Notes: generated from the letters alone by a model not told the origin. Numbered from the stretch's first letter, positions 1 through 63,732 are shown. The stretch: 64,000 nt of DNA from an uncultured Chthonomonadaceae bacterium (GCA_963835065.1 CAWIEK010000053.1:32001-96000); one strand, 5' to 3'. Made by a program: numbers and translations.

Positions 1-867
1 TACTCCGCGTCCGGGTGCGCCGCTATCGCCAGGTTCGCCGGTATCGTCCAGGGCGTCGTCGTCCAGATAACGGCGTAACAGTTGAGGGGATTGCCGATTG
101 CCGATTGATCCTCTTCCGTATTCCCTTCCATGTTGAATACTCCCATCGGGTCATGGTGAAGCGGGAAGCGCACGTAGATGCTGTTGGACGTGTGATTTTC
201 GTACTCCACTTCCGCGTCGGCGAGGGCGGTTTCGCAGGTCGCGCACCAGAACACGGGTTTGAGGCCGCGATAGATAAAGCCCTGCAAGGCCAGTTCGCCG
301 AACACTTCAACGATTTTAGCCTCGAAGTCCTTGCTCATCGTTAAATACGGGATCGTCCCACTGCCCCCGTATGCCCAGCCGCTTGAACTGTTCGCGCTGC
401 GTGTCCACCCACTTTGCCGCGTACTCACGACACGCCTGCCGCAGTTCCACGCGCCCCACCGCCTGCTTTTCCTCGCGGAATTTACGCGATACAGCGTTTT
501 CGATGGGCATACCATGATTGTCCCAGCCCGGCACGTAGGGCGACGAATAGCCCTGCATCGTTCGGAAGCGGGTCACGATGTCTTTGGCGACTTTGTTGAG
601 CGCATGACCCAGGTGGATGTCGCCGTTGCTGTAGGGCGGGCCGTCGTGCAGGATGAATTTGCCTTTGGGCGCGTGTTTGGCGACGCTTTTGCGGTACACG
701 TCCAGGCTGTCCCAACGCGCCTGCACATCCGGCTCTTTGGCGGGCAGATTGCCCCGCTGCGGAAACGCGCCGGGGTCTTTGTCATTGAGCGTGATGTTGA
801 GCGTGCCGCGATAATCGCGCTTCTCAGAAGTCGGTTGTTCTTGATCGGGTCGAACGGTAGTCGTCAT
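1..867 (-). CDS. ileS: Isoleucine--tRNA ligase, N-terminal part (runs off the window; apparent frameshift near 345)
   Basis: [22 protein letters not shown] (HIGH motif) and [11 protein letters not shown]. After a frame change it continues [12 protein letters not shown]...AEVEY...[17 protein letters not shown] at 867 with GAGGA upstream. Confidence 0.95.
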
Positions 868-892
868 TGTAAAAGTCCTCAATACGGTTTTC

Positions 893-1219
893 ACCACCCG
901 CTCCGCTAGAGGCACAGAGGCACAGAGGGGAAGAAAAGAAGAAAAGAAGAAGAGAAGAAAAGGAGATAGGGAACCGCGAAACACACGAAATAAACGAAAA
1001 AAGACGAAAAGAACACAAATAAATTTACAGATACCACCGCATATTTAGAACAAACAGGCTTACCTTCTCGGTTTTTAATCCTGCAAATCCCGTTAATCCT
1101 GTCTATTTCTTTTGTTCTTTTTTCGTCTTGGTTCGTGTGTTTCGCGGTTCCCCAGTTTCTCTCTTTCTCGTATTGGCTTTTCCTCTGTGTCTCTGTGCCT
1201 CTAGCCGTAGGCGGGTGGT
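893..1219. repeat. Nested inverted-repeat mini-element built from 9-nt tandem repeats
   Basis: Outer arms 893-929 and 1182-1219 (AGAGGCACAGAGGCACAGAGG / CCTCTGTGTCTCTGTGCCTCT). Inner arms 969-989 and 1132-1152 are a perfect 21-bp inverted repeat. Central AATCCTGCA-AATCCCGTT-AATCCTGTC at 1077-1103. Confidence 0.85.
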
Positions 1220-1237
1220 TCATTTATAAAATTGGGC

Positions 1238-1429
1238 GCAAAAAACGCGCCGCCGCGATGGTCACAAAGACGTGCGGACAGGGCGCGGATGGACGGCGAC
1301 GCCGGAGCGGAACGAGCGTAAAACTCGTCAGGCTCCCGACGCCGCCTGCGTAATCACGCTAATCGTCAGCCGCGAGACGCAAAAACGCCGCAATCCATAA
1401 AGGGCGCGTATCAAGGTAACGATCTGCAT
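1238..1429 (-). promoter_or_regulatory. Candidate leader peptide plus terminator (attenuator) upstream of ileS
   Basis: 33-aa ORF at 1429-1328 (MQIVTLIRALYGLRRFCVSRLTISVITQAASGA, 4 Ile codons) preceded by AAGGA. It is followed by a GC-rich stem ending GCGGCGGCGCG-TTTTTT. Confidence 0.4.
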
Positions 1430-1441
1430 GGGAGGAGTTCC

Positions 1442-2074
1442 TTACTTTTCCGTCGGCTGCTTTGCCGTAGTTTTGGGCGCGTCTTTCCCGGTGTTCTTCG
1501 CCGGGGCGTTCTTCTTGCGTGTTCTGCTTGTGGACACGGACGTTCCGGGCATGATAACCGGGCCGGGTTCCCAACGAAACGATGTGATTACTTTGTCAAA
1601 CAGCGTATCGTACTTCTTTATATTGGCGGGCAGCGTGGTCAGGGTCAGCGTAAGCGCCTGCGGGCCGCGCAGACATACGACCTGCCGATTTTCGTGCGCG
1701 GCCTGACCGGGCACATTGACGTGCATACGCCAACTGTAGGCTTTTTCGCCGCCCAGCGTCAGGGCTGTTTCGCCATAAATGCTCAAGCCCTTTTGCTTTG
1801 CGATTTCCCTGCGCGTAGACTTTATGTAGGCTTCCAGCGACATTCCGTGAACCGGCTCGCCATACGTGCCGATGGTGGCGGCCTCATCTTCCGGGCGGGC
1901 TGTCGGTTCTACCAGTACCGCGTAATGCGGAATCAGTTGTTGGTTTACCGTCCAGCCCGGCGGCGGAACGAGGGAAAATCGGTGCGCCGTATCTGTATAA
2001 CGCCCGTCAGTCGGCGTGGCGCAGACAACAGCGGCAGTTCCCAATCCCCAAATCGCCGGAACAAGCCAACGCAT
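1442..2074 (-). CDS. Secreted PsbP/DcrB-like domain protein
   Basis: Signal-peptide-like N-terminus, YTDTAHRFSLVPPPGW and FDKVITSFRW typical of the PsbP-like fold, Lys-rich tail. Confidence 0.6.
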   Translation of the reverse strand: MRWLVPAIWGLGTAAVVCATPTDGRYTDTAHRFSLVPPPGWTVNQQLIPHYAVLVEPTARPEDEAATIGTYGEPVHGMSLEAYIKSTRREIAKQKGLSIYGETALTLGGEKAYSWRMHVNVPGQAAHENRQVVCLRGPQALTLTLTTLPANIKKYDTLFDKVITSFRWEPGPVIMPGTSVSTSRTRKKNAPAKNTGKDAPKTTAKQPTEK

Positions 2075-2303
2075 TGAACCCATTACTTTACCCATTAAAA
2101 ATTCACGCTGAATGTAGCGAAAATCGCTTGACCCTGACCGTCAACTTGAAACGTCGTCAGCGCCACGCTCTAACCCTGTGTACTGCGCACGATAACTTGG
2201 GCGCGGTACAAAAGCTGGAAACCGCCCTGACTTTCTTGCTTTCTTTATATTATACCCCAAATGCCGCGTCGTGAAAGAAGCCGCGAAGCCGCCGCAAAGG
2301 AAC

Positions 2304-2348
2304 GCAATCGGCAATCGGCAATCAGCAATGGGTTCATCCTTCATCCTT
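2304..2348. repeat. Compound heptamer array (GCAATCG x3.5 then TTCATCC x2)
   Basis: Read directly, just 3' of the stop of the 2360-3232 gene. Confidence 0.85.
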
Positions 2349-2359
2349 TCCTGCTACCC

Positions 2360-3232
2360 TCAACCCATCTCCGCGAGCAAGCCGCGCGTGTAGCCGACGC
2401 TTTCCGCCAGACCGGGCAGGGGATCGTCCGCGTCCTTTTCATACTCGAAGTTGGCGTAGTAGGGGTACTGAATTTTCAGCAACGCCTGCAGGATGGATTT
2501 TATGTTCAAGACGCCGCGCCCGACTTCAACGTTCGCGCCTTTGGGCGTGGTATTGTTGATGTCTTTGAGGTGCATGTCATACAGCCGTTCACGGTATTTC
2601 AGCACGGCTTCAGCCGGGTCGTCGCCGGCGCGGGCGGAATGGCCCACGTCAATGCACAGTCCGATGCGCTTGTCATACGGCTGCACAGCCTTCCATACAT
2701 CCGTAGGCGCGGGAAACCGCTTGTCTTCCGGCCCGTGATTGTGGATGGCGAGTTTGATGTCGAACTCCTTCACCATTTTGTCGAGCAAAGCCATGCTGTC
2801 GGGGTCGGGGGCGCAGACAATGGTGGGCAGGCCGATGTCGCGGGCATACTCAAACGCGGCGCGAATGTTGGCCTCGTCGTTCTTCATGGAAACGTTGCCG
2901 CAACTGACCGGCGTAATGCCCGCGTCCTTGAACTTCTGCGCCACCGCCTTGCGCTCGTCCGTCGCGCTGTTCATCGCCAAATGCGAGTCCTTGATGGAAA
3001 CGTATTTCAGGCCAACGCGCTGAATGTCCTTGATGGCAACATCGAGCGGGAGTTTGCGCAATGTGTACGAGGCGACGCCGATTTTCAATCCGTGCCACAA
3101 ATCGGCATGGGAAACCGTTTTCACAGGCGCGGTTTGCGCGTTCGCGCCCGTGCCGGACTGCGACAATGCCGCCAGCGCCGCCGCCCCGGTTACAAGCAGA
3201 TCACGGCGGGAAACCAAAGGTGAATGTGTCAT
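2360..3232 (-). CDS. Sugar phosphate isomerase/epimerase (xylose isomerase-like TIM barrel), Tat-exported
   Basis: SRRDLL Tat motif, AIHNHG, CIDVGH, MHLKD, FEYE metal ligands. Confidence 0.9.
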
Positions 3233-3243
3233 GGTGTCCTTCC

Positions 3244-3630: not shown

Positions 3631-3639
3631 GGTATCGGC

Positions 3640-3963: not shown

Positions 3964-4091
3964 AACAGATTCCTCCTGCCCCTTATACTACAACAATTCG
4001 TGAAATGTTTCGGGCTTCTGATGGCAGCTCTTTATATAGCGCGTGGCTGCGCTCCGTTTTGTTTGCTGCAATCATGCAGGCATTTGCTTTC

Positions 4092-4843: not shown

Positions 4844-5175
4844 GTATGTAGAGTCATCGTCGAAATCTTGGCAATACAGCGCTTCCAGCCCGATGTCTCG
4901 TTGTGTCAGATTGTAGGAGAGAGGCGTCGTGGCCTCAGCAGCGTCAGGGCGAGCGGGAGGGGTGAAACATAGGCTTGCACCTCCCTTCTTAAGTTGATAG
5001 TTGATAGTTGATAGTTGATAGGAACTGCCAACGTTCAACCTTCGTCTCTGTATACTAGACGTTTGTACTGTATAGACAGGATGAGGAGGGCAAAAGGTTC
5101 ACCTTTTTTGTGTTGTGTGGCTTTTTTTCTGCGGGATGGTTGCTGTTGGCGTCGTGTGGGGAACGGAGAAGGGGG
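4844..5175 (-). repeat. Copy 1 of a ~330-bp duplicated non-coding element
   Basis: Aligns by eye with 34770-35106. Contains TTGATAG x4 (4994-5021) and the mini-ORF MFHPSRSP (4970-4944). Confidence 0.85.
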
Positions 5176-5245: not shown

Positions 5246-8078
5246 TCAGGAATTCGGTTCGCCAAACTCCGCGTCAAGATACTCTTGTACGAGGTTGTCG
5301 AAACCGATGGACAGCCACGCAACGCGGGCGGCGGCGACATGCGCCTGCTGTGTGGCGGCATCGGGCGCGACTTGCGCCAGGCGGTAGCGCGTGACGCCGA
5401 TGGAATACGGTTCCGGTATTTGCGCGTACAGGCGTAACGCCTCCTCATAGCGCAGACGAGCCACATCGTTGTTTGCGCGCGAGCGCGCAATGTCGCCTAA
5501 ACTCTGGATGCAATTCGCCTGCCCCAACACATCGCCGACATTCTCATACAAGGGTTGCGCCTGTTCGTACAAGCGGCGGGCTTGTTCATGCTCGGAACGC
5601 GCCAGCGCAATGTCGCCTAAACTCTGGATACAATTCGCCTGCCCCAACACAGAGCCGACATTCTCATACAAGGGTTGCGCTTGTTCGTACAAGCGGCGGG
5701 CTTGTTCGTGTTCGGAACGCGCCAGCGCAATGTCGCCTAAACTCTGGATGCAGTTCGCCTGCCCCAACACAGAGCCGACATTCTCATACAAGGGTTGCGC
5801 TTGCTCGTACAAGCGGCGGGCTTGTTCGTGTTCGGAACGCGCCAGCGCAATGTCGCCTAAACTCTGGATGCAGTTCGCCTGCCCCAACACAGAGCCGACA
5901 TTCTCATACAAGGGTTGCGCCTGTTCGTACAAGCGGCGGGCTTGTTCGTGTTCGGAACGCGCCAGCGCAATGTCGCCTAAACTCTGGATGCAGTTCGCCT
6001 GCCCCAACACATCGCCGACCTGTACAAAGAGCGGCTGCGCCTGTTCGTACAAGCGGCGGGCTTGTTCGTGTTCGGAACGGCGCAGCGCAATGTCGCCTAA
6101 ACTACTGGATGCAGTTCGCCTGCCCCAACACATCGCCGACGCGCAACGCTGCGCGTTGCGCGGATTCCTGCAATTGAATTGCTTCCGCGCCGTAGATGCT
6201 CAGGTAGAGGAAATCGCGCAGGGAAGAGGCCAGAGGCATCAGCGCCTCCCAGTAGTCATTCGCTTGCTCCGCGAATTCAGCGGCGCGGAGGGCGTTGCGC
6301 CATTCAGCCCGCAGCACGGCATATTGTTCCGGGAGGTTGATGTTTCCATTTGCCTGTATCAACTGGACGTAGTGGGCAACGTACCGCTGCTGTATCGCCT
6401 CGGCATCCTGTGGCATTTCGGCGCGTAACCGCCGCAGGGCATACTCGCGGAACACGGGCAGCAGGCGATAGCGCACGATGTCGTCGGCTTCGCGGCTTTC
6501 CAGCAGGTGTATGTGGTTCCACTTGACCAGCAGCGCGTCGGCAACGCCGCAAATCGCTTCCGCCGCGTCCGGGGCGAAGTCGTAGGCGAAGATTCCCAGA
6601 CGCGGAAACAGCGCCTGCTGCGCGTCGGGGAGGGTCTGCACCGACCAGTGGATGCAGGCTTCCATGCTGACGTGGCGCAGACTGTCGGCGCGGGCATAGC
6701 CGTATTCCTCGCGCGTTTTTTGCCAATCCAGCAGGCTGTCGCTCAGGCCGTCGGCGATCTGTTTGAGCGTCTTCATCTGGCGCAGCGCGGCGGTCAACTC
6801 GATGCCGAGCGGAAACCCTGCCGTATGTTCCAGAATACGGCGCAGCGAGTTCACGTCGCTGATGTCCTTTACGGGCCGGTGCTGCTCCACGCGCGCCCGG
6901 AACAACTTGCAGCCGTCCAATGCCTCCATGTTTTCCCCGTCATGCGGCACGGGCAGGCCGGGAATCTCGTATGTTTCGCTGAACGGTTCCAGCATGATTT
7001 TGTCGCGGCTGGTGACGAGCCACCGCATGGCGTCCACGTTCTGAATCAGGTCGCCGAGCCAGCGCAGCGTAGCGGGATTGACCATGCTTTCGCCGTTGTC
7101 CAGAAACATCAGCGTGGACGCGCGGGTTTGCAGATGGTTTTCCAGCCGGGTTTTGCCGTTCGCGTCGGAGGCAAGCGGCTCCTCCATAACGGGTTTCGGG
7201 GCCTCAATGGCGCGGGCAATCGCTCCGGCCAGCAATTCGGGCGTCACCTTGTCGGGCGCGTTGCCGAACTCCCGGTCGAGCGACACGCCATGAATGTTGC
7301 CCCGGAAGTCGCCGCACACGGCCAGAATGGTTTGGATGGCAAGCCGGGTTTTACCGATGCCGCCCGGTCCGTGCAGCGTCAGGAGGGGTTTTTTGCCCCG
7401 CAGCCACGTTACCACGTCCTCAATCTGCCGGTCACGTCCGATGAATTTATTGCCTTCGCGCCGCATCCACGCGGGCAGCCAGCGCGTACCGGGTTCGCGC
7501 GGTTCCTGCCCCGCATACCACAGCAGTTCGTGAACCGTTTCGGGCTGCTGATGGTAGCTCTTGATATAGCGGTTGGGCCAGGGATAAAAGTCGTAGACCT
7601 GCCGACTGCCCGCGCGGTCATGGGCGGACGCCGACACGAGTATCTGCCCGCCCTTGCCCAAGTCTTCCACGCGCTTGGCGTAATTGATGTCCTCGCCATG
7701 ATACAGCCCGGCGGCGTCCGGCTTCATGTCTTTTTCCGCGCGATGCAGGCCGATGCGTATCTTGATTGTCCATGTCACGCCGTTTCGCGTACAGGTAATG
7801 GGCGCTTGCGTCAGACGTTCCTGCATGGCGCGGGCGCAGGCCAGCGCCTCGTCCACATGCTGAAACACGATCATCAGGCTGTCGCCGGCAGGCGTGCCGT
7901 TTTCGTAGCCGTTGTGTTCCGGCGCGTTCAGGCACTCGCGGAGAACGTCAAAATGCGGGTCGCGCAGTTCGCCGTGATAGAGAGCGTCGCCAAGCGCCTT
8001 GTTCATCAGCGACGAGTCCTCAACATCGGTAAACAAGATGGTGACGCTGCCATGCGGCAGTGGGGCGGGCGGTGTCAT
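5246..8078 (-). CDS. Class III nucleotide cyclase - NB-ARC/STAND NTPase - TPR protein (one extra base near 6104)
   Basis: Cyclase motifs TILFTDVEDS, GDSLMIVF, IRIGLH, DINYAKRVE. Walker A GPGGIGKT, Walker B MFLDNGE, GFPLGIEL. TPR units GDVLGQANCIQSLGDIA. The unit at 6100-6112 reads AACTACTGG where the other units read AACTCTGG. Confidence 0.9.
5484..6140 (-). repeat. 120-bp tandem repeats (about 5.5 near-identical units) encoding TPRs
   Basis: Alternating 60-nt lines recur almost verbatim from 5521 to 6120. Confidence 0.95.
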
Positions 8079-9437: not shown

Positions 9438-9567
9438 AAGGATGAAGGATGAAGGATGAAGGATGAAAACTCCTTTTCCTTCATGTTTTGTGCGAGCGCG
9501 TAAGTCTTGAATGACGTGTGGAGAAGCAGGCATTGCCTTCATCCTTCATCCTTCATCCTTCATCCTT
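9438..9567. repeat. Inverted pair of heptamer arrays (AAGGATG x4 / CATCCTT x4) around a ~70-bp spacer
   Basis: 9438-9465 and 9540-9567 are reverse complements. Confidence 0.92.
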
Positions 9568-11020: not shown

Positions 11021-12256
11021 GTGTACATAGACCGATTGACAGTGGAAAATTTTCGATGTTTTGAGCAAGTCGAGATGGATTTCAATTGGCCTGACTGGCA
11101 TGGTTGGGCGGATTGGGCAAGCAAGACAGAACTACGCCTGCCCAACATAAATCTGCTCATCGGAAACAATGGAACAGGTAAGACAACTACATTTCAGGCG
11201 CTTGTCATAAGCGCGTTGCGAGTAATTTTAGGCACAAATTCTTCCGGCTTTCGGACGGACCGAATCATACGCCATACTCAGGAAACTGCTGATGTAAGCG
11301 CCAGAATAATGCGCTCGGAAATGGACAAGGGCGATGAGCCGGACAAAAGTGACATTCTCCCCGCCCTGAGTGGAGTCAAGGCAAATGCGACAATCAAACG
11401 CCAACAGAGTACGGAATTTATAGAAATGCGCGGGTCTACGCCCAAATGGGCCGACATTTTATATGATGACAAACATCCCGGTCTATTCATTGCTGCTTAC
11501 GGCGCAGGCCGTAGAACCGAGCGCCCGGAGGCTTACAATGAACGTTTACGCGCGGTTCGTTATCAACGGGTCGCTTCTCTCTTTGAGGCGCATGTTGGCT
11601 TAATTCCAGCCTCCAGAGCCTTTACACAATGCCGCGCGCATGAAAGGTGGGAAGAAGTTATCTTCCTTATAAACGAGTTGCTGCCTCTCCCTGTTCGTTT
11701 AACGGAGAAACTTGAAGATGACATTGAGCCTTTGTTCGATTACGGTGGCATACCTCTTCCGGCGAGCTACTTATCGGATGGCTATCGCTTGTTTGTTAGT
11801 TGGGTGATTGATTTGCTCACACACTTAGCGCTTGTCCTGCCCAAAAGGTACAGACTCAATGAAGCCACAGGAATAGTCATTGTTGATGAGGTTGATCTGT
11901 TCCTTGCGCCTCGGTGGCAGCGAACAGTGCTGGAATCTCTTTCGCGTACCTTTCCTGGCTTGCAATGGCTATGCAGTACACACAGCCCCCTCGTCGCCGG
12001 TTCACTTGACAATGACAACATTTATATCCTGGAACAAGACTCTTCCTATACCTCCTATGTGCGCCGTCCAACAAGCAAATTCGAGGGTAGAAGCGTGGAC
12101 GAAGTTCTAATAGAATTGTTTGATGTACAACAGCCGCGTTCGCCGCAGCTACAGCGGCAACTCAGTGACCTGGCGGAACAAGCCATGAATGGCGATTTAG
12201 ATGCTTCTTTACTCTATCTGCGCCGTCTCAATGAAGGGTCCAGACCGCTCCGATGA
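11021..12256 (+). CDS. AAA_15/AAA_21-type ABC ATPase (PtuA/Septu-like)
   Basis: MYIDRLTVENFRCFE, GNNGTGKTT, AYGAGR, LSDGYR, IVDEVD, STHSP. GC visibly lower than the flanks. Confidence 0.85.
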   Translation: MYIDRLTVENFRCFEQVEMDFNWPDWHGWADWASKTELRLPNINLLIGNNGTGKTTTFQALVISALRVILGTNSSGFRTDRIIRHTQETADVSARIMRSEMDKGDEPDKSDILPALSGVKANATIKRQQSTEFIEMRGSTPKWADILYDDKHPGLFIAAYGAGRRTERPEAYNERLRAVRYQRVASLFEAHVGLIPASRAFTQCRAHERWEEVIFLINELLPLPVRLTEKLEDDIEPLFDYGGIPLPASYLSDGYRLFVSWVIDLLTHLALVLPKRYRLNEATGIVIVDEVDLFLAPRWQRTVLESLSRTFPGLQWLCSTHSPLVAGSLDNDNIYILEQDSSYTSYVRRPTSKFEGRSVDEVLIELFDVQQPRSPQLQRQLSDLAEQAMNGDLDASLLYLRRLNEGSRPLR

Positions 12257-13182
12257 TTCAATACCCTCTTGCTTTGCGAGAATTATCCCGTATTGTCAGC
12301 CGCAGGTTGCCAACAACACTCAATCAAGATGGTAAACCTCGCAAAAATGGCCGTGTCGCCTGGCGTATTCAGGCACGACAACAGACACAGCAGTTGCGAA
12401 GCCAAAGAACTTATAATCTTGATAAAGACTATGAAATTTGGCCGGAACTGAAGGATATATTTGCGGGCATACAGGGCGACAAGTGCGCTTTCTGTGAAAA
12501 GAGACTTCCTGATCATAGGAGTGGTCGCGTTGGTGGTGATATTGAGCATTACAGGCCGAAGAACGGCGTAGTGGCATGGCCTACCACGCACCCTATACCT
12601 GTGGGAAAGTCGGACACAGACTGCTACTATTTGCTTGCGTTCCATCTTCGCAATTATCTGCTTTCTTGCGGCATTTGCAATCAGGACTACAAACGTAACT
12701 ATTTTCCCATTGCAGGGCAGCGCTGCCCTGCACATTCCTGCCGTCCTCGTGATCTGCTTGCTGAACGCCCTTATCTTCTACATCCGCTGGATCCCAATGA
12801 TGAAGACCCGGAAGAATTAATTGAGTTTATAGGAATAGTCCCTGTGCCAAGAACTGCGAAGAATACGCCTTCTTATTGGCGGGCTGTAGTAACAATAGAA
12901 CTGCTTGGACTGACTGGCGGCAATCGCTTCGACTTAGATTTAGAGCGCGCAACAACAATTGTTTGTCTAAGCTTGGCACTAAAACTTCAAGCCAGCAAAG
13001 GAAACGATCCAGACGTCGTATTTACACTCAACGGATTAACAAACGACTCTCTGCCACATCGCAATTGCGCTCGTAGCTTCAAAAGACTGTATGATAGTGA
13101 TCCCATCCTGGCTGCGCATGTCGCCCGGGAAGCCCTAAAAATTGTAGATGACGATCAGCGTCGCAGACGTCGGGTAAATTGA
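12253..13182 (+). CDS. HNH endonuclease (PtuB-like)
   Basis: KCAFCE, DIEHYRPK, NYLLSCGICN, KRNYFP, LLHPLD..DPEE. ATGA-coupled to the ATPase. Confidence 0.85.
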   Translation: MIQYPLALRELSRIVSRRLPTTLNQDGKPRKNGRVAWRIQARQQTQQLRSQRTYNLDKDYEIWPELKDIFAGIQGDKCAFCEKRLPDHRSGRVGGDIEHYRPKNGVVAWPTTHPIPVGKSDTDCYYLLAFHLRNYLLSCGICNQDYKRNYFPIAGQRCPAHSCRPRDLLAERPYLLHPLDPNDEDPEELIEFIGIVPVPRTAKNTPSYWRAVVTIELLGLTGGNRFDLDLERATTIVCLSLALKLQASKGNDPDVVFTLNGLTNDSLPHRNCARSFKRLYDSDPILAAHVAREALKIVDDDQRRRRRVN

Positions 13183-15104: not shown

Positions 15105-15222
15105 GTTCAGGTGTTCAGGTGTTCGGGTATTCAGGTGTTGAACTCATAGCTTTGCTGCGATGAACCAACCGTCTGTACTTTTGTATTTCCTGAATACCGA
15201 ACACCTGAACACCTGAATACCG
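15105..15222. repeat. Inverted pair of octamer arrays (GTTCAGGT type)
   Basis: Left arm 15105-15140, right arm 15189-15222 (CCTGAATACCGAACACCTGAACACCTGAATACCG). Confidence 0.88.
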
Positions 15223-17395: not shown

Positions 17396-20300
17396 ATGTT
17401 GAACTCTCTGATTGCCGCCAAAGTCCATGCCTGGTTTCAGCGCGAAGATTGCCCCGTTCGGCAGATCATTACGCACATCGAAACGGCGCGATTTTTTCGG
17501 GACGCGCAGATCGAAGCAATCAAGACGTATCTGTTTTTGAAAATCGAAGGCGGCAACCGTCCGCTGTGGCAGTTGTTTGCCGAAGGCTTTTTCAGTTCGC
17601 GGGAAGATTTGTCGCGCCTGGCGCTGCGTCAGGATACGCGCGAACTGCTGGAAACCGATACGGCGGCGCGGGCGCTGTTTGAGTTTACACGCCTCAAAGC
17701 CAATGGCGCGGCGAAAACCCTGCTGCCGGAACTGGAAAGGTTTCTGCTCGACCATGTCGCCGAAGTGGATTGCCCCGCCGTCATCAAGCAGTTATTCTAC
17801 GGCGTGGAGTACCCGGATTACCTGTTCAGCCTGCCGATGGGCGCGGGCAAAACGTTTCTGATGGCGGCGTTTATCTATCTGGATTTGTACTTCGCGCAGA
17901 ATGAACCTGCCAACAAAGCCTTTGCGCATAATTTTCTGCTGCTCGTCCCTTCCGGCCTCAAATCGTCCATTATTCCCAGTTTGAAAACCATTGAAAAGTT
18001 CGATCCGGCCTGGGTACTGCCTGAACCGGCGGCTTCCAATGTTCGCAAATTAATTAAATTCGAGATTCTGGATCAGCCCAAATCCGGCAGCAAAAGCAAC
18101 CGGGCGCGTAACCCCAACGCGCAGAAAATCAGCCGCTATCAGCCGTTCGACGCTCTGATGGGCCTGGTGATGGTGACGAACGCGGAAAAGGTGGTGCTGG
18201 ATCAGGCCAAGTTCGACGCGCAGATGCGCCTTGTGGAGCCGACCGAAGACGAAAAAGACAAAGCCGCCAACGAATTGCGCAACCTGATCGGCAAAGTGCC
18301 CAACCTGCAAATCCTGATTGACGAAGTGCATCACGCGGCAACCGATGAAATCAAACTGCGGCAGGTAGTCAACCAATGGCAAAAAGGCAACGCCAAAAAC
18401 CCAACACCTGAACACCGAACACCGAACACCGGCAACATTAACGGCGTTCTCGGCTTTTCCGGCACACCCTACCTGTCCTCACCCGAAGAAGTGACTATTG
18501 CGCCGAAAATGGCGGTGAAGTTCGCGCAGATTACGAACACGGTTTTTTATTATCCGCTTACCCGCGCTATTGCCGGGTTTTTGAAGAAGCCGACCGTGCG
18601 GACGATCAGCGAATTGGAAGGCAGCCGGATTGTGCGGCATGGCGTGGCGGATTTTCTGGCCCAATACGGCGACAAGGTGTACGCTAATGATGCGACCGCC
18701 AAACTTGCCATTTACTGCGGCAGCATCGAACGCCTGGAAGAAGAGGTTTATCCCCTGCTCATCGGCGAAATGGGAATTGCGCCCGCGGACATTCTGAAAT
18801 ACCATCGAGGCAACGCCAAATACAGGATTTCACCCGCAGACGGAGGCCGGGTGGAAGTATTTGGATACCCCCTGTCGCGCAAGCGGATCATCCTGCTGGT
18901 GCAGATCGGCAAGGAGGGCTGGGATTGCCGGAGCCTGACGGGGGTAATCCTGTCGCAAAAAGGGGATTGCCCCACGAATATGGTGCTGCAAACAAGTTGC
19001 CGATGCCTGCGCGAAATGGACGGCGACAGGGCGGGCGCTAAGGAAACGGCGGGAATCTGGCTCAATGCCGACAACGCCAAAAGCCTGGACAAGCAGCTCA
19101 AAGAAGAACAGCACACGAGCATTGAAGAGATCAACCGATTGGGCAACAGCGATGCGGTTCCCCTGCGCCCCCGCTACAATCGCATGGACGCGCTGAAACT
19201 GCCGCCCGTAGAGTTTTATCAACTGCGCGTCCGCTATGAAAACCTGACGCTGGAACCCGCGCAGCCGCAGGAGGCCCTTCGCTCGGTAGATGCCGCCCGG
19301 TTTCGCGCCAACGCCGCCAGTGTTACCCGCAGCCTGACCGCAAGCGAAGCCGACAGCCGGTGGTTCCACAAACAGGAACAGGGCGAGATTGCCGACTTTT
19401 CCGCCTGGCTCCTGCAAATCGCCAAAAGCAGCCTGGGCGCAATTTCCCTCGCCGCCCTGCGCCCCCACGCCCTGAGTTACGCGCCATCTTCGACGCGATC
19501 ACGTATATCGAGGGAAAAGGAAAAAGGGAAAAGGGAAAAGAACAGAATACGGAAGAAGAGGATGCTCTATCAACTATCAACTATCAACTATCAACTCCTG
19601 CATCCTTCTTTAACGCCCTCTACGACCTGGACGCTATTGCCGCCGAGATACGGCTGGCGTTTTATGCGCGACGGACATTGAACTCTGCGAGCGAGATCGT
19701 TCCCGATACCGCTCGCCTGCTGATTGCGGAAAAACTGATGGCGATTGCCGCCGATAAGAAGAACGTATATCCGGGCGAAAGCGACGTAGAGCAGATGCGG
19801 GAAATGGACGCGGCGGGACAGACCGCGTTTCAGTACGCCGAGGAGCAGCGCGCCAAATTGGAACAGGTGCGGGAAATGGCGAAAGCGGCCAATCTGGACA
19901 TCAACCTGTTTGCCCTGCGCGACAATGCTGTTTCTGCCGCCGCGCAGAATAAAGACCGCTCGTTCCATTATGCGCCGTACAGCTTCGACAGCAGTTTTGA
20001 AATGAAGTTTTTGCAGGAAGCGCTTACCCTGCAAGCCCTGCGCGACGGGCAGTTGGAATTGTACTTTAACGGCGCGGGCGAACTGACGGAGTTTCGCATC
20101 GAATGTTACGCGCCCCGGCCCGGCGGCTGGAACAAAGTGGGCAAGTACACGCCCGACTTTCTGCTGGTAGAGCGCAAAAACGGAGCCATTCACCGCGCCC
20201 TTATTATCGAAACCAAAGGCAGCGGGTATGCCGACCAGAAAGCGTTTCTCGCCCGCCGCGATTTCGTGCAGTCCCACTTTCTGCAAATGAACAATGACAA

Positions 20301-25646: not shown

Positions 25647-25682
25647 GTTCAGGTGTTCAGGTGTTCGGGTATTCAGGTGTTG
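25647..25682. repeat. Octamer array identical to 15105-15140
   Basis: GTTCAGGT GTTCAGGT GTTCGGGT ATTCAGGT GTTG at both sites. Confidence 0.9.
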
Positions 25683-29307: not shown

Positions 29308-29411
29308 TTTCGTTTCTTTCGTTTCTTTCGCGGTTCCTAATCTCTTCTTTTCTCCTTTTCTTCTTTTCTTTTTTTCTCTGTGCCCCCTCTGTGTCTCTGT
29401 GCCTCTGTGGT
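29308..29411. repeat. Compound 9-mer element homologous to the left half of 893-1219 (reverse orientation)
   Basis: TTTCGTTTCTTTCGTTTCTTTCGCGGTTCC, a pyrimidine tract, then CCTCTGTGTCTCTGTGCCTCTGTGG. Confidence 0.82.
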
Positions 29412-30126: not shown

Positions 30127-31675
30127 TTACACGTTGCGCCAGGAACCCAATTGCTGCCAGGGATTGGTGACTGGTGGCTGGTGATTGGTGGTTGGCATTT
30201 GACGTGTTGAGGACGTTGCCGTTGCTGTGACGGCTTCCGCCACCAGTGCCAACAGTACCTCCGGCGGTATCTCCGTTGCGGGTTTCCAATCGGAAAAATG
30301 GTCGCGCAAAAATTGCGTGGACAAATCGCCAGCTTGAAAGGCGGGGTGACGCCCAATCGCCAGCAGATACGCGATATTGGTTTGGATGCCCAGTACGGCG
30401 AATTGCCTCAGCGCCTGCTCCAAGCGGGCAAGGCTTTCCTGCCGCGTCGCGCCCGTTGCAATCAGTTTCGCCAGCATCGGGTCATAATAAGGCGAAACTT
30501 CGCCGCCACGCTCCACGCCCGCGTCCACGCGAATTCCCGGCCCGCCCGGTTCCTGCCACTGCGTCAGAACGCCAACGGAAGGCATAAAGCCCGTTGCCGG
30601 GTCTTCGGCATAAATACGCGCTTCAATCGCATGGCCGGACGCGCGTATATCTTCCTGCGCAAAGGGGAGGGGCTTGCCGTCCGCAATGTCCAATTGCAGG
30701 CGTACCAGGTCCAGGCCGGTAATCGCTTCCGTAACGGGATGCTCCACTTGCAGGCGCGTATTCACTTCCAGAAAGTAAAAGGCGGCTTGATCGGCTTCGC
30801 TTTGATTATGCGCTTGATTGTCTGCGCTGTGCGGGGTCGGTTCCAGCAGAAACTCCACCGTACCCGCGTTCACATAACCTGCCGCCCGTCCCGCCGTCAC
30901 CGCCGCGTTTGTGATTCGCGCCCGGAGTTCCGGCGTCAGGATTGGAGACGGACTCTCTTCCATGATTTTCTGGTGGCGGCGCTGAATGGAACACTCGCGT
31001 TCATACAGATGGACGACATTGCCCTGCATGTCGCCAAATATCTGTACTTCAATATGACGTGGACGGGCTAGATAGCGCTCCAATAGCAGCCTGTCATCGC
31101 CAAACGCGGCCTGCGCTTCCCGCCGCGCTTCCACAATGGCATCCGCCAGTTGATCGCTTTGCGTAACCACGCGCATACCCCGCCCGCCGCCGCCCGCCGC
31201 CGCTTTTACCAACAGCGGCAAGGGAATCAGCGCGGCTTCGGCCAACAAACGCGCGTCGCTTTGATCGTCGCCATTATAGCCCGGCACAACGGGTACGCCC
31301 GCCTGCTGCATCAAGCGCTTGGCCGCAATCTTATCCCCAAGCCGCCGTATCACGCCCGACGGTGGCCCGACAAAGATTAACCCGGCTTCCTCACAGGCGG
31401 CGGCAAAATCCGCGTTTTCCGACAAAAACCCGTAACCCGGATGAACCGCGTCCGCCCCACCCGCCTTTGCCGCAGCCAGCAAATTGGCGATGTTCAGGTA
31501 GCTGTCTTTGGCCGGGGCCGCGACCAATGCAGTACGCTTCCTCCGCCAAACCCATATACAGCGCGTCCCGGTCCGCTTCCGAATACACGGCCAGCGGCGT
31601 AATGCCCGCTTCCCAGCAGGCGCGTATGATGCGAACGGCGATTTCGCCGCGATTTGCAATGAGGAGACGGTTCAT
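30127..31675 (-). CDS. liuD: Biotin carboxylase subunit (MCC alpha; frameshift near 31515)
   Basis: [53 protein letters not shown]. Confidence 0.93.
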
Positions 31676-31710
31676 AGGGTTTTAGGGTTTTAGGGTTTTA
31701 GGGTTTTAGG
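31675..31710. repeat. Octamer array TTTTAGGG x4.5
   Basis: Abuts the liuD start codon. A degenerate inverse arm lies at ~31739-31766 and a shorter copy at 56522-56541. Confidence 0.9.
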
Positions 31711-34769: not shown

Positions 34770-35106
34770 GTATGTAGAGGCAGCGTCGAAATCTTGGCAA
34801 TGCAGCGCTTCCAGCCCGATGTCTCGTTGTATCTGGTTGTAAGAAGAGGCATCGTGACCTCGGCAGCATCAGGGCGGGCGGGAGTGGGGGAACATAGGCT
34901 TGCACCTCCCTTCCTGAGTAAGTAGTTGATAGTTGATAGGAACTACCAACGTTGCGCTTTCCTGTCTTTATAGTAGACGTTTGTTCTAGTGTTTAGACGG
35001 CTGTGTGGGGCAAAGGTTTCTCTTTTTTCGCGTTGCGCGACTCTTTTTTCTATTATCTTGTTTGTGGGATTGTTGCTGTTGACATACTGGGGAACAGAGA
35101 GAGGGC
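34770..35106 (-). repeat. Copy 2 of the ~330-bp duplicated non-coding element
   Basis: Homologous to 4844-5175. Mini-ORF MFPHSRPP at 34895-34869. TTGATAG x2. Confidence 0.85.
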
Positions 35107-44395: not shown

Positions 44396-45325
44396 ATGAT
44401 AGCATTACCGAATACCGAACAGGAAATAGGGAACAGGAAACAGGGAACAGGGAACAGGAACCTGTTACTCAACGCTCAACGCTCAACGCTCAACGCTTTT
44501 ACCTTAATTGAGTTGCTCGTCGTCATCGCGATTATCGCCATCTTGGCGGCGATCCTGTTCCCCGTGTTTGCGCAGGCGCGGGAAAAGGCGCGGCAGACAA
44601 GCTGCCTGAGCAACATCAAGCAGATCGGCACGGCCATGCTGATGTACTCGCAGGATTATGACGAGCAGTTCCCCACCGGGCGCTACAATCCCGCGTACCC
44701 CAATCCCGCCGATTATGGCAAAGGATGGGCCAGCGCCCTGTACTCGTATACCAAAAACGCGCAAATTCTCAAGTGCCCCGATGACGGCACGGCAAACGTC
44801 GCCACGTCCAGCGTTTCGCCCGCGCTGTACCCGGTCTCGTATGTCTACAACTACAACATCGCGCAGCAGCCCGGCATTGCCGGCCAGAACGCGCCCGCCA
44901 GCACGGTGCTGATGGGGGAAGTCGTAGGCGATCAGGCCAATGTAGTCGCATCGGGCGAACTGCCCTCGTCTTCAGTTCCCGTGTACTCCCCTGCCGGCAA
45001 CGGCCTGACGGTGCTGACGGCGATAGACGGCAGCGCCATGCCGGGTGTGGCCGGAGCCGTCAAGTACGACACGGGGCCGATGGGCGGCTACCAATTGGCG
45101 GCAGCGCCGCAGGTTCCGTACCCGTCCCTGTTCAAGAACAGCACGGGGCGGCACTCGGATGGCAGCATCTTCTGCCTGGCCGACGGACACGCCAAGTTCT
45201 TCAAGCCGCAGGCGGTTTCTCCCGGCTATAATGCGGGCAGTTCCGACGCGCCGCAGGACAACTCCGTGTATACGGCAGCGGGAACCGCCGACTCGCGCCA
45301 CGCCGTCACTTTCAGCGCCAACTGA
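44396..45325 (+). CDS. Prepilin-type N-terminal cleavage/methylation DUF1559 protein with H-X9-DG tail
   Basis: [40 protein letters not shown] and [16 protein letters not shown]. Confidence 0.95.
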
Positions 45326-45724: not shown

Positions 45725-45726
45725 TC

Positions 45727-53126: not shown

Positions 53127-54367
53127 CTTGACAAACGGTATGTTTGTCTTGACACACTGTACGTTTGTCTTGACACACTGTACGTTTGTCCGGTAACATT
53201 GTGGTATGTTCCGGCTTACCGTCAAGTACAGACTACTGCCAACCGCAGCGCAGGAAACCATCCTGCGCCAGATGCTTTCCACAGCCCGCGACGTGTACAA
53301 CAGCATGGTGGGCTGGCGCAAGCGCGATTATGAAATACACGGCACAAGTCCTACTTACCTGCAACAGCAGAACGTGTTGCCGCTGTGGAAGCCAAGCCCA
53401 CCCGGAGTTGTGTCAACTCTACTCGCAGGTATTCCAGGATGTGGTGAAGCGCGTGTACCTTGCCTTCCAAGCGTTCTTTCGGCGCGTCAAGAACGGTGAA
53501 ACGCCGGGCTATCCGCGCTTCAAAGGACAGGGGCAGTACGACAGCCTCACCTATCCACAGGAAGGTGGCTTTGTGCTGGAAGAGGGTGCAGTACGGCTGT
53601 CCAAGATCGGCGTTATCAAGGCCGTTCTTCATCGCTCCCTGCCGGGTGTTGCCAAAACCTGCACGATAAGAGTACAGGCCGGAAAGTGGTTTGCCTGCCT
53701 CACCTGTGAAGTGGAACAAGAGCCGCTACCCGCAAGCTCGGAGCAAGTCGGTATAGATGTCGGGCTGGAACACTTTGCCGCCACAAGTGAGGGCGAGTTC
53801 ATTAGCCAATCCTCGTTTCTTCCGCAAGGACGAAAAAGCCCTTGCAAAAGCGCAACGCAAAGTGCAACGTCTCAAAGCCTGCCGCACACAACAGCGCAAG
53901 ACGAGCTTGCGCAAAGCGCGGCGCATTGTGTCATGTATCCATGAGCGCATCCGCAACAGCCGCCATGATTTTGTTCACCAGACCGCTTGTAAGTTGGTCA
54001 ACCGCTTCGGCCTGATTGCCGTAGAAGCCCTCCACATCAAAGGTATGGTACACAACCATTGCCTTGCCAAGTCCATTGCCGATGCCAGTTGGCGTATGTT
54101 CCGCGCTGTCCTTGAAAGTAAGGCTGAAAGAGCCGACCGGAAAGTGATCGCCGTCAACCCCGCATACACCTCCCAAGACTGCTCGGAATGTGGAAATCGC
54201 GCCCAAAAGAAACTTGGGGAGCGCGTTCATGTTTGTTCGTGCTGTGGCCTTGTGCTGCAACGTGATGTGAACGCGGCAAAGAACATCCTCAACATCGGTG
54301 TGGGGCGGCACACCGTTCCGGCTTGACCGGAGAGAAGCCCCGGCGTTTACGCCTGGGGAGCCGTCAC
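53127..54367 (+). mobile_element. IS200/IS605-family (IS1341-type, tnpB-only) element
   Basis: Right-end hairpin AGAAGCCCCGGCGTTTACGCCTGGGGAG then TCAC (54364-67). Left region has a 21-bp unit repeated three times. No tnpA. Confidence 0.85.
53206..54326 (+). CDS. tnpB: RNA-guided endonuclease TnpB (frameshifts near 53395 and 53805)
   Basis: KYRLLPT, GYPRFK, GIDVGL, IAVEAL, TSQDCSECG, CSCCG, RDVNAAKNI. RuvC D/E/D present. Confidence 0.92.
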
Positions 54368-56393: not shown

Positions 56394-56559
56394 CCTGCGC
56401 CTTTGCCTGTCAGTGCCTTTGCCTCTTTGTTCCCTCCGACACCCGCAAAATCCTGCTTGAATACATTTACGCAGGAAATACCGCCCGAAAACGCGAAACA
56501 AAACGTAGATTAGGGCGTGAGTAGGGTTTTAGGGTTTTAGGCGGGTGAAGGCAGGGGAT

Positions 56560-60436: not shown

Positions 60437-60867
60437 CGCCAGGCTATGTTCTCGATTCAGATGTAGCTTCCCTGCTCACACATTATCCGAATCAACAGCC
60501 GCATCTTGTTCAAAAGGTTTCCGCAATGCCAATCCAACAGATGTGGATCAGCATTGTAACTATCGAGGAAGCGATAAAGGGCGCGTTTGCCCTCATCAAC
60601 AACCCGAAAATGCCCACAGCGCAGATACAATCCTGCGAACTCTTACGCCGCATCATGCAGGAGTATTCTCGCTTCCGTATTTTGCCCTATGATGCAACGG
60701 CGCAGCAGGTATACAAGAATATGACGGCGGCGGAAAAGCGCGTAGGCACGAACGACTGCAAAATTGCCGCCATTGCCATGTCGCGCAACTTTGTCGTGGT
60801 CACGCGCAATGTAAGAGACTTTACCCGCATCAACGGCGTCGTTTTTGAAGATTGGACGCAGCCGTAA
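60433..60867 (+). CDS. vapC: PIN-domain VapC toxin
   Basis: YVLDSD, TIEE, GTNDCKIAAIA, VTRNVRDF, EDW. Confidence 0.92.
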   Translation: MTPGYVLDSDVASLLTHYPNQQPHLVQKVSAMPIQQMWISIVTIEEAIKGAFALINNPKMPTAQIQSCELLRRIMQEYSRFRILPYDATAQQVYKNMTAAEKRVGTNDCKIAAIAMSRNFVVVTRNVRDFTRINGVVFEDWTQP

Positions 60868-60893
60868 TCGGATGTACAAACGTCATCTGAGAG

Positions 60894-60936
60894 AAACCAC
60901 CCCTTGCAAGAGATTGTCTCTCGCAAGGGGTGTTTT
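60894..60936 (+). terminator. Intrinsic terminator
   Basis: CACCCCTTGCAAGAGA...TCTCTCGCAAGGGGTG followed by TTTT. Confidence 0.75.
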
Positions 60937-61014
60937 GACATAATAGTTTAGCCCCATCTCGAATCAGAGCCTCTCCCCTCTTCCAGGCTTTTTGGGAGAG
61001 GGCGGGGGTGAGGG

Positions 61015-61239
61015 CTACTCGGTCAGGACAATTCCGCGTGTCGTTTTATCCGTGTGAGCAACGCCATTATTAGCGGCTTTGTCATCGCCATAAATAACGC
61101 CTTTGCTATTGGCGCTGACGGCGCTTGTACCGCCGCCGCAGCCGGCCAGCAATCCGGCCAGCAGGCAGCCCAGGAGAAGAAGCATCGCGCCGCGCGCAGT
61201 GCGGGGACTCGGCGCGGAAGAACGAAGAATGCGAGTCAT
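61015..61239 (-). CDS. Small lipoprotein
   Basis: AAGGAG RBS and LAGC lipobox. Confidence 0.7.
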   Translation of the reverse strand: MTRILRSSAPSPRTARGAMLLLLGCLLAGLLAGCGGGTSAVSANSKGVIYGDDKAANNGVAHTDKTTRGIVLTE

Positions 61240-61350
61240 ATCGGTCTCCTTCCAGAAACAGTTTGTCGCTTGGGCGGCGTTGAGGGGAAACAGCACGCCT
61301 TTCGTATTCTCCCTGCCCGGCGCAAATACCTGCGTCCGTAAGAACTATTT

Positions 61351-61552
61351 TTTCTACCCTCATCCGGCCTCCGGCCACCTTCTCCCTGCAAGGGAGAAGG
61401 CGAAACTAATCAATGGGCGGTTGAACGGGAGATGACGAAGCCTCTAAGCAATCTATAAGTATTCACAAAATCTCTGACCAACCCGCCCGATAAACAAATT
61501 AGCCTTCTCCCTTGCAGGGAGAAGGTGGCCGGAGGCCGGATGAGGGTAGAAA
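61351..61552. repeat. MITE/REP-like element with perfect 51-bp inverted arms
   Basis: 61351-61401 is the exact reverse complement of 61502-61552. Each arm contains a CCTTCTCCC..GGGAGAAGG hairpin. Related single hairpins at 45341-45373 and 60969-61014. Confidence 0.9.
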
Positions 61553-61656
61553 CTTCCGCTTTACCGTGACGTAAATAGTGACGCGGGAGGAATGAAAGGC
61601 GTCTGCGTCGAATAACAGGCACAATAATCCAATGTTTCGCAAGGAGAACCCGACCC

Positions 61657-63732
61657 GTGACCACCGATGCAACGCCGCAACTTAATCCCAATAGTAATGC
61701 CGATGCGCAACAGCCGCAGGCATTTCCGCCACCGCCCGATTTTGCGCGACAGGCTAATGCCAACAATTCCGATATTTACGAACTCGCCAATCAGGACACG
61801 GAAACATTTTGGGCCGAGTGCGCCCGCGAATTGACGTGGATTACGCCGTTTCAAAGCGTTCTGGAATGGAACCCGCCTCATGCCCGCTGGTTTGCCGACG
61901 GTCAACTCAACGTCAGCGCGAACTGCGTGGATCGGCATTTGCAGGCGCGAAGTGACAGGCGGGCTATCGTGTGGGAGGGAGAACCCGGCGAAGTCCGAAC
62001 CCTGACGTTTGCTGAACTGTCGCAGGACGTGAACAAATTCGCTAACGTGCTGAAAAGCCTGGGCGTACAAAAGGGAGACCGCGTGACTCTGTACATGCCG
62101 ATGGTTCCCGAAGCCGCGATTGCGATGCTGGCTTGTACGCGCATCGGCGCTCCTCATTCCGTCGTGTTCGGCGGCTTTTCCGCCGAAGCGTTGCGCGAAC
62201 GTACCATTGACTGCGGCTCCAAAGTGATTATCACGGCGGATGGCTACTGGCGGCGCGGCGGCATCGTGCCCCTCAAGCAGACAACGGACGAGGCGGCAGA
62301 AGCCTGCCCAACCGTAGAAAAGATCGTCGTCCTGAAACGCATCGGCGAACAGGCCAATGCCACGATGCAGTCCGGCCGCGACCTGTGGTGGCACGACCTG
62401 ATGGCAGACGCTTCCCCTGACTGCCCGCCCGAACCCATGAACGCGGAAGACCCGCTTTTCATTCTCTACACCTCCGGCAGTACCGGCAAGCCCAAAGGCA
62501 TCCTGCACACAACCGGCGGCTACCTGACCGGCGCTTACATCACCACCAAACTGATCTTCGACATCAAAGACACCGACCTCTACTGGTGTACGGCTGACAT
62601 CGGCTGGATTACCGGCCACTCCTATGTCGTCTACGGCCCCCTTGCCAACGGCGCGACGGTTTTCATGTACGAAGGTTCGCCGGATTGGGGAAAAAGCAAG
62701 GATGAAGGCGGAAGGATGAAGGATGAAAAACAAACTCCTGATTCATCCTTCATCCTTCATCCTTCATCCTTTCAAGATCGTGGGCGTTTCTGGGACATGA
62801 TCGAACAGCATAAGATTACCATTTTGTACACCGCGCCGACGTTGATACGCTCGTGTATGAAGTGGGGAGATGAGTTCCCACACGCGCATGATTTGTCGAG
62901 TCTGCGGCTTTTGGGAAGCGTGGGCGAACCGATCAACCCGGAAGCGTGGCTGTGGTATCACGAGCATATTGGGAACGGCAAATGCCCGATTGTGGATACG
63001 TGGTGGCAGACGGAAACGGGCGCAATTATGATAACGCCCCTGCCCGGCCTGACCACAACGTACCCCGGCAGCGCAACCCGCCCGTTCCCCGGCATTGAGG
63101 CGGATGTGGTGGACGAGAAGGGCAACCCGGTTCCTAATGGGAAAAATGGAATCTTAGTGATTCGTAAGCCCTGGCCGTCCATGCTGCGAACGCTGTGGAG
63201 CAACGATGAGCGGTACAAACAGGTGTATTGGAGCAAGTTCCCCGGCCTGTACTTCCCCGGCGACGGAGCCATGCGGGACGCGGACGGCAATTTCTGGCTG
63301 TTAGGCCGCGTGGACGATATCATACTTGTCGCAGGTCATAACATTAGTACGATGGAAATGGAAAGCGCGCTCGTAGAGCATCCCGCTGTGGCCGAGGCGG
63401 CAGTTGTCGGCAAAACGCACAAGGAGAAATGGCAAGTCCCCATCGCCTTCGTCGTTATCCGCGAAGCCCACGCGCCCGACAAAGACGACAAAGCCGCTCT
63501 CAAAGCCCTGAGCAGCGAACTGAAAGCGTTCGTGGCAACCAAACTCGGCGCGATCTTCCGCCCCGACGACGTGATCTTAACCGCCGATCTGCCCAAAACC
63601 CGCAGCGGCAAAATCATGCGCAGATTGCTGCGCGACATTGCCGAAGGCCGCGTCATGGGCGACACCACCACCCTCGCCGACCCCAACATCATCGCCAGCC
63701 TCAAAGACAAGTACGCCGACGAGGAAAATTGA
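61657..63732 (+). CDS. acs: Acetyl-CoA synthetase with a repeat-derived in-frame insertion
   Basis: [42 protein letters not shown]. Confidence 0.97.

Follow-up and report, generated by a model that had tools for sequence, protein, structure and literature searches.

The stretch of DNA analyzed here (the window, 64,000 nucleotides [nt]; GCA_963835065.1 CAWIEK010000053.1:32001-96000, or G000:C53:32001-96000 in our numbering) comes from an uncultured Chthonomonadaceae bacterium (G000; genome of 8.0 Mb, 57% GC), close relatives of which turn up in soil and biocrust metagenomes, and it is dotted with short tandem arrays of 7- to 10-nt units. These repeats are real, and they are mobile in the sense of being copied and replaced. 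The cassette that they build consists of an arm of about four units, a spacer mostly of 10 to 70 nt, and a complementary arm. Our preferred explanation, at a probability of roughly 0.55, is that these are nonautonomous hairpin cassettes spread by copy-and-replace at the level of DNA, probably helped by the genes for four-helix-bundle and GxxExxY proteins found between the same arms.

An earlier reading made from the window's letters (the sequence-only reading) had reported 7-, 8-, and 9-nt arrays at about 20 loci and judged them to be more than ordinary slippage; both statements held. Tandem Repeats Finder (TRF) lists arrays at those places, and under a uniform criterion (period 7 to 10, at least 2.7 copies, score of at least 38) the window contains 23 arrays at about 16 loci, versus 0.14 expected from an order-6 Markov simulation that yields 18 arrays in 8 Mb. 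Across the whole genome, TRF returned 2,667 rows for 7-mers, 769 for 8-mers, 420 for 9-mers, and 146 for 10-mers (17, 14, 9, and 14, respectively, in an equal-size null), while exact arrays of at least three copies numbered 1,330 for 7-mers, 123 for 8-mers, and 6 for 9-mers, with none of any of these in the null. Exact 4-mer and 5-mer arrays were at chance level (163 versus 186 and 31 versus 27, genome versus null). The nonredundant set came to 3,488 arrays in 1,871 clusters; those of 7-mers mostly had 4 or 5 units, median arm length was 27 to 34 nt irrespective of period, and the commonest units (AGTTGAT, AGGCATT, and AGTAGTC) were without G-tracts. The list of units in the sequence-only reading needed correction: TGGTGAC is degenerate, AGAGGCACA, taken for a 9-mer-type unit, has a true period of 8 nt (AGAGGCAC), and CGAAACACA and AATCCTGCA form no exact doublets, being degenerate 9-mer layers of one nested palindrome (885-1225). 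Three further repeats of the window fall outside the array family by period and context: a 120-nt TPR repeat (5485-6140), an in-frame 9-mer (43971-44013), and a 21-mer at 53127.

The arrays follow a common grammar. Sixty-one unit families, covering 2,991 of the 3,488 arrays, have a clear polarity, scored as the strand form found after stop codons versus before starts: the first (L) form, richer in G than in C in 54 of the 61, follows stops, and the complementary R form precedes starts. Two-arm clusters run L then R in 718 cases and R then L in 1. For intergenic pairs, context and arm order are partly one and the same fact; order scored from pairs alone agrees, with same-family inverted neighbors giving 96:4 for AGGCATT, 74:7 for AGTAGTC, and 45:5 for another family. 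Among 996 one-sided clusters, a decayed partner lay on the expected side in 252 and on the other side in 1. Spacer lengths peak at 50 to 60 nt, with a second mode at 10 to 20 nt. Arrays occupy 977 of 4,012 co-directional junctions and 281 called genes, counts that are blurred by homopolymer frameshifts in the assembly and by a simple in-house gene caller that places starts imprecisely and misses atypical genes. An array lies within 60 nt of 26 of the 75 tRNAs; in one tRNA cluster (G000:C49:430,200-431,800) most spacers hold a cassette, with several different unit families represented. The tRNA at G000:C1:196596-196693 is the one for selenocysteine.

This polarity and these cluster counts agree with the sequence-only description of arrays after stops, before starts, and in frame, often as two arms around a spacer. 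The further suggestion that the arms are interchangeable fails between genes, where co-directional pairs are matched (complementary) in 424 cases and mixed in 67, which rules out free interchange at intergenic copies, and it holds only inside coding sequence, where 17 pairs are matched and 99 mixed. Matched L-R clusters total 532, and their stems fold as predicted; outer stem ends are heterogeneous, with a loose A-G-G preference only. Multiarm clusters are mostly chimeric, and a clean nested order (abba) was seen in just 1 of 9 LLRR clusters, so that one intact element simply inserting into another does not suffice as an explanation.

That mixed pairs dominate only within coding sequence points to selection. 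Length differences between intragenic copies and their orthologs are multiples of 3 in 30 of 33 cases, and stop-bearing units account for 24 of 605 intragenic arms versus 858 of 1,712 intergenic ones. The contrast is also found in families that are stop free on both strands, with matched:mixed ratios of 8:90 in genes and 39:36 between genes (p = 1e-10). What had looked like interchangeable arms would then be chimeras filtered by selection. Long stems in coding mRNA are probably selected against, a pressure inseparable here from selection on the encoded peptide.

Whole arm-spacer-arm units recur at unrelated loci, in line with the insertion footprint that had been proposed. At least 80% identity to a sequence elsewhere was found for 111 of 497 spacers, of which 33 were repetitive, 29 lay in larger duplications, 3 had one shared flank, and 46 had unrelated flanks on both sides; distinct spacer copy pairs at unrelated loci number 63, with identities of up to 97.9%. 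Spacer families track arm families (for example, AGTAGTC arms in 17 of the 21 members of one family). Target-site duplications showed no excess, direct-repeat lengths at 481 element ends being those of shuffled flank pairs, although old copies could have lost their duplications. Spacers were also considered as pieces of cargo open reading frames (ORFs) and rejected as such, the matches being short and the best one lying within arm-like flanks. Variant units were mirrored between both arms of one element in 127 of 206 cases (62%, versus 36% at random). Mirroring would suit repeats generated locally, by slippage and arm-to-arm conversion, and retained as regulatory hairpins or protein-binding sites with no movement at all, as would the uniqueness of most spacers, the partial conservation of sites between congeners, and the 83% of Xanthomonas arrays in the same context in the available part of PMC4692102. 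A local origin is nonetheless already strongly disfavored, and we consider it very improbable, given the near-identical, otherwise unique spacers with their arms at unrelated loci, the clean empty alleles described below, an arm length that is constant near 30 nt across periods, and a limited common repertoire of units.

Alleles at orthologous sites were compared over 0.8 of the 7.5 Mb of congener G002 and 0.4 of the 6.6 Mb of congener G001, with at least 72% identity required of both flanks. In G002, the 75 intergenic alleles comprised 28 empty, 30 of another family, 14 of the same family, and 3 weak, and the 25 intragenic ones 5, 12, 7, and 1, respectively, over a background in which at most 5% of positions lie near any array; the corresponding numbers in G001 were 17, 9, 1, and 0 between genes and 4, 3, 0, and 1 within them. 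The empty orthologous sites that the sequence-only reading had proposed to look for are therefore present in both congeners, and the mixture of empty, other-family, and same-family alleles indicates that the sites behave as refillable slots. Occupancy of junctions is correlated between G000 and G002 (30/28/8/54; odds ratio, 7.2; p = 5e-6) and not significantly so between G000 and G001 (p = 0.10), and the family differs at 20 of the 30 junctions occupied in both G000 and G002. In alignments of replaced alleles, the spacer and both arms differ, and the boundaries, often marked by a common AGG, agree to a few bases. Two cassettes of the window illustrate this (Table 1): the one between mreB and mreC is missing from G002 (stop, 5 nt, ATG) and belongs to another unit family in G001, and the counterpart of the one in the acetyl-CoA synthetase gene (acs) is a related unit in G002 and, in G001, a short loop rich in purines. 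Over 26 readable loci, the acs loop has 13 residues in six from other families of the order and 18 to 19 residues in 11, and G015 and G023 carry unrelated repeat arms there; in four DNA contig sets no contig spans the acs insert, which leaves these sets silent on empty alleles.

A similar allelic series is seen in rRNA. Both assembled 23S genes exceed the Rfam model by about 300 nt and carry three heptamer inserts each. One follows model position 312, one is in the loop of the hairpin after 1218, and one is near 1893-1900; two of the three are at hairpin tips. These inserts are 80 to 140 nt long and without an ORF, and the three TIGR02436 (four-helix-bundle) genes of the genome sit elsewhere, a difference from S23p-type intervening sequences (IVSs), which hold a four-helix ORF within the rRNA insert. 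The 1218 hairpin, which we take to be helix 45 in Escherichia coli numbering, measures 18 to 20 nt in G013 and G023 and has AGTAGTC arms in G000, TAGGGAT arms in G002, and GGGAGTA arms in G001. At the 1893 site, G000 has AACAGGG arms and G001 a decayed insert, and the sequence is short in the other three (G002, G013, and G023). An IVS is an extra hairpin in a 23S helix that is missing in relatives, and the G000 copies have both properties; they fit its positional definition, while their excision is only predicted. Helix 45 is also named as the site of the Coxiella IVS in the available part of PMC4990558. Lengths of 23S genes vary from 2,810 to 3,223 nt within one family (loci L280-L285), and G001 has further 23S inserts, with differences among its own rRNA copies.

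The rRNA copies raise the question of an element that acts at the level of RNA, namely IVSs that RNase III excises from transcripts and whose spread runs via an RNA intermediate and a reverse transcriptase (RT) borrowed from elsewhere, the four-helix protein being Avd-like. Besides the three inserts per 23S gene and the proximity of arrays to tRNAs, the presence of an RNase III gene, the weak, below-cutoff similarity of the four-helix protein to bAvd, a slight same-sense skew of copies, and the RNase III excision of a heptamer-bearing IVS in Coxiella (available part of PMC4990558) all speak for it. We regard it as improbable all the same: pairing on the mRNA strand shows no bias of G-U over A-C (82 versus 119), and selection on RNA-strand pairing was rejected for that reason as well; the largest spacer family is oriented 11:10 relative to mRNA; and intragenic copies are in frame and stop free, i.e., translated rather than spliced. 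On independent edges, orientation relative to transcription stands at 27:17 (p = 0.17), and a bias was rejected as not significant. The genome's two RT genes, moreover, are not enclosed by arms, contrary to the enrichment of RT families between paired arms that the sequence-only reading had raised. Cutting by RNase III may occur without being the route of spread; long matched stems are predicted to be cut in mRNA and for that reason to be purged from coding regions.

The spread at DNA level that we prefer gains from the genes that the arms enclose. Arrays of this kind had been named, in the sequence-only reading, as flanking four-helix-bundle (TIGR02436) and GxxExxY (TIGR04256) genes, neither of which lies in the window, and indeed its contig has no match to either family, while the genome has three of each, all six with arm-type flanks by eye. 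By score, 5 of the 6 are enclosed with 170-nt flanks and 3 of the 6 with 110-nt flanks; at the latter setting only 20 of 6,489 called genes are enclosed, these 3 among them, the others including SIS, MarR, and unknown proteins. Across the order, once 9 partial four-helix hits and 2 GxxExxY loci had been set aside, inverted flanks were present at 20 of 22 full-length four-helix loci and at 23 of 28 GxxExxY loci, versus 0 of 194 shifted controls. The best period was 7 or 8 at all 22 four-helix loci, and a 9/10-mer flank was present at 24 of the 28 GxxExxY loci. Of 79 four-helix loci from other phyla, 77 were usable, and 60 of these were bracketed, with the G-rich arm first in 56, versus 0 of 144 controls. 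The GxxExxY gene at locus L004 has a left arm that is matched by the left end of the window's 885-1225 palindrome. The four-helix protein belongs to PF05635 and is close to PDB 2GSC (E = 9e-19); the GxxExxY protein belongs to PF13366 and, from a D...E-x-K motif in 27 of 30 loci, is a putative PD-(D/E)XK nuclease. RTs and Y1 transposases were rejected as partners, neither being bracketed by arms: none of the four PF01797 (Y1/HUH) matches in the genome is.

Spread by the host machinery alone, through ordinary replication that switches templates and through repair of breaks where DNA tends to form cruciforms, with the four-helix and GxxExxY genes as passengers that have gained arms, is the closest competitor; we think it unlikely, if less so than the two explanations above. 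Other genes are enclosed as well (SIS, MarR, and unknown proteins, with HEPN, PemK, and peptidase genes between far-paired arms), G001 retains heptamer arrays without a detected four-helix gene, and mirrored variants agree with fold-back copying. Enclosure is, however, the rule for both families (43 of 50 loci in the order and 60 of 77 beyond, versus the 20 enclosed among all called genes); within the order, period class also follows gene family. In 20-kb samples from 20 other genomes, 7/8-mer arrays occurred in 3 of 9 with a full-length four-helix gene and in 0 of 11 without (6 arrays in 180 kb versus 0 in 204 kb), the genomes being kin and not independent. Some enclosed ordinary genes are present twice, possibly as arm-moved cargo or else as assembly duplicates: an M48 peptidase gene (C43:69728-70814 and C69:38486-39574) and a small unknown ORF (C12:70498-70965 and 75778-76245). 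A Y1/RAYT-like gene at G000:C49:523,600-524,400 lies amid GGGCAATCA-type tandem and palindromic repeats that make up a separate REP-like (repetitive extragenic palindromic) system, and the IS200-like tnpA genes at G000:C42:76421-76894 and C51:103020-103472 each lie between long repeats that are theirs alone.

Under DNA-level copy-and-replace, the GxxExxY protein or a host hairpin nuclease would nick or break the DNA at an arm, or at what is left of one, and repair would copy in another cassette from a different place in the genome via a few bases of arm homology. Copying would overwrite the occupied slot, yield chimeras, and occasionally seed a new site, and the four-helix protein may serve as an arm-binding factor for the 7/8-mer class. 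Selection would retain copies at places that tolerate a long RNA stem (after stops, between tRNAs, and at variable rRNA helix tips) and, within genes, would keep in-frame, stop-free, nonpairing combinations of arms. The helper role of the enclosed genes is likewise a proposal. A bolder version, which we advance tentatively and hold to be rather less probable than its negation, is a transposase-free class of mobile elements in which four-helix proteins mobilize cassettes with 7/8-mer arms and GxxExxY nucleases mobilize cassettes with 9/10-mer arms, both kinds of cassette homing into and overwriting residents.

Several observations weigh against copying with helper genes. G001, 97% complete and without a TIGR02436 match, still has 80 7/8-mer arrays per Mb, versus 220 and 397, although these are more decayed (85.0 versus 91.5% matches) and its density of 9/10-mer arrays is similar (62 versus 44 and 53); no 7/8-mer array was seen in the 20 kb sampled from 6 of the 9 genomes that have a four-helix gene. 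The split by period fails beyond the order, 9/10-mer arms being present at 29 of the 60 four-helix loci there. The family is retained at 10 of the 30 co-occupied junctions (3% by chance), so part of the pattern is plain inheritance, and mirrored variants indicate that in-place arm-to-arm conversion also takes place, which is able to change a family without a donor. Detectable spacer families take in only 58 of 347 spacers, a pairwise count of orientation is skewed 26:7 to mRNA sense (the pairs not being independent), and junction microhomology is hinted at by just a few clean empty alleles. The steps of the reaction and both protein activities are, moreover, putative.

The cassette family fails defining tests for MITEs (miniature inverted-repeat transposable elements), REP doublet hairpins (REPINs), and retroelements. 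REP and REPIN sequences are short, nonautonomous inverted pairs around a spacer, mainly extragenic, with a putative, rare autonomous RAYT gene flanked by the same repeats. An inverted doublet with a spacer in mainly extragenic positions is found in G000 too, but its arms are tandem arrays rather than short palindromes, a conserved short palindrome that carries a fixed 5' tetranucleotide is absent, the bracketed genes encode a four-helix protein and a PD-(D/E)XK nuclease, and the RAYT (Y1 HUH) genes are unbracketed by these arms. MITEs and Rickettsia palindromic elements are small inverted-repeat units at many sites, with in-frame inserts in conserved proteins. G000 shares with MITEs the terminal inverted repeats and the same unit at unrelated loci; it differs from both in having no excess of target-site duplications, dozens of end sequences, and replacement of resident copies. 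No cognate transposase with the same ends was found among arm-enclosed genes, the few transposase-like ones among them not having been checked for arm type and DDE families not having been searched singly. Unlike retroelements (diversity-generating retroelements, retrons, and group II introns), the G000 elements have no RT gene within or beside them.

Closer relatives are found among described heptamer arrays, with comparisons here resting on the available parts of the papers. The GGGAATC arrays of Xanthomonas and the GGGGA(C/T)T arrays of Nostoc (Rehm et al. 2015, PMC4692102) likewise have about four units, the G-rich form after stops and on the noncoding strand before starts, and many inverted pairs (70 of the 186 repeats in Xcc), with depletion between divergent genes; each genome, however, has one G-quadruplex-type unit, in contrast to the 61 polarized families of G000, many without G-tracts, and in that part of the paper no mobile-element link was found and no partner gene named. 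The TAACTGA repeats of Beggiatoaceae (MacGregor 2015, PMC4679880) also occur before starts, in ribosomal protein operons, and in frame in some proteins, with mobility considered possible; they differ as direct repeats of one unit with one inverted pair, and the main text does not mention "four helix" or "intervening sequence." The Coxiella 23S IVS with its S23p/four-helix-bundle ORF (Warrier et al. 2016, PMC4990558) shares the insertion into a 23S helix, a closing stem of about 28 bp, heptamers in the arm, and the protein family PF05635, whereas in G000 the rRNA inserts are ORF-less, copies with an ORF are found in protein operons, and almost 1,900 clusters are outside rRNA. Beyond the Coxiella IVS, we found no literature joining such repeats to four-helix or GxxExxY genes, nor an account of a combined system, in a search of main texts, for the most part of papers free of subscription; the term GxxExxY occurs in three papers, in one of which it is mentioned only beside a CRISPR-like RT, and PMC10392669 contains nothing on the subject.

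In those same sources, the excess of heptamers in bacteria is described as unexplained (PMC4692102, PMC4679880) and S23p/four-helix proteins as without known function (PMC4990558). Here, one grammar covers the heptamer arrays, the 23S inserts without genes, the in-frame inserts in proteins, and both families of small genes, and allelic series (empty, same family, other family) are visible at fixed slots. This analysis adds the grammar of 61 families, counts of alleles, a single 23S hairpin with a series of three families, the filtering of matched arms out of coding regions, and, within one order, the division of the two gene families by period. If a transposase-free system of this kind does exist, it would explain the bacterial heptamer excess, 23S intervening sequences, and how new in-frame peptide loops keep being supplied (281 called genes here).

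Table 1. Repeat arms and cassettes located in the window (positions counted from its first nucleotide; SD, Shine-Dalgarno sequence)
Position	Strand	Feature	Remark
89..107	-	Degenerate heptamer arm, AATCGGC form on sense strand, in frame within ileS	
885..1225	.	Nested palindrome built from 8/9-mer layers (AGAGGCAC, GAAGAAAA, CGAAACACA-type), upstream of ileS start	Folds as a single long stem, -151 kcal/mol
2304..2348	-	Two stacked first-type arms (minus-strand GGATGAA and ATTGCCG forms)	Directly 3' of stop of gene 2360-3232
4992..5021	-	Lone second-type arm, CTATCAA x4.3	Ahead of SD and ATG of minus-strand gene
9438..9567	+	Matched cassette: AAGGATG arm, spacer of about 70 nt, CATCCTT arm	mreB-mreC junction
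15105..15221	+	Matched 8-mer cassette: GTTCAGGT, spacer, CCTGAACA	Between DinB-like gene and E2 acyltransferase gene
18399..18431	+	In-frame AACACCG-type arm	Within ResIII-domain ORF 17396-19681
19511..19596	+	In-frame mixed cassette AGGGAAA / CTATCAA	In ResIII-domain ORF 17396-19681; arms unable to pair, -4.2 kcal/mol
25647..25681	+	Lone first-type GTTCAGGT arm	3' of thiolase stop
29308..29409	-	Stacked 8/9-mer arms, class as in 885-1225	3' of biotin carrier gene stop
30162..30195	-	Degenerate in-frame heptamer arm	Within biotin carboxylase gene
31675..31710	-	Second-type 8-mer arm (AAAACCCT form)	Adjoining ATG of biotin carboxylase gene
34923..34939	-	Short CTATCAA arm	In duplicated leader in common with 4940-5070
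44417..44497	+	In-frame mixed cassette AACAGGG / CTCAACG	Leader of prepilin (DUF1559) gene
56522..56541	.	Short TAGGGTTT arm	
62698..62771	+	In-frame matched cassette AAGGATG / TTCATCC	acs loop

Rfam at gathering score matched two tRNAs and no other family in the window. A leader is duplicated at 4940-5070 and 34860-35000 (85% identical), comprising promoter-side sequence, a CTATCAA arm of differing length, the SD, and the gene start; one copy is upstream of a VapC-type module. Four genes are each split across reading frames, namely ileS (316-338), biotin carboxylase (31391-31675), acyl-CoA dehydrogenase (39424-39610), and tnpB (53186-54326), probably through long-read assembly errors, since the break in ileS falls in a short homopolymer. 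At 11021-13182, a PtuA-like ATPase and a PtuB-like HNH protein, both from weak NCBIfam matches below cutoff and with no RT gene nearby, make up a candidate Septu-like defense module.

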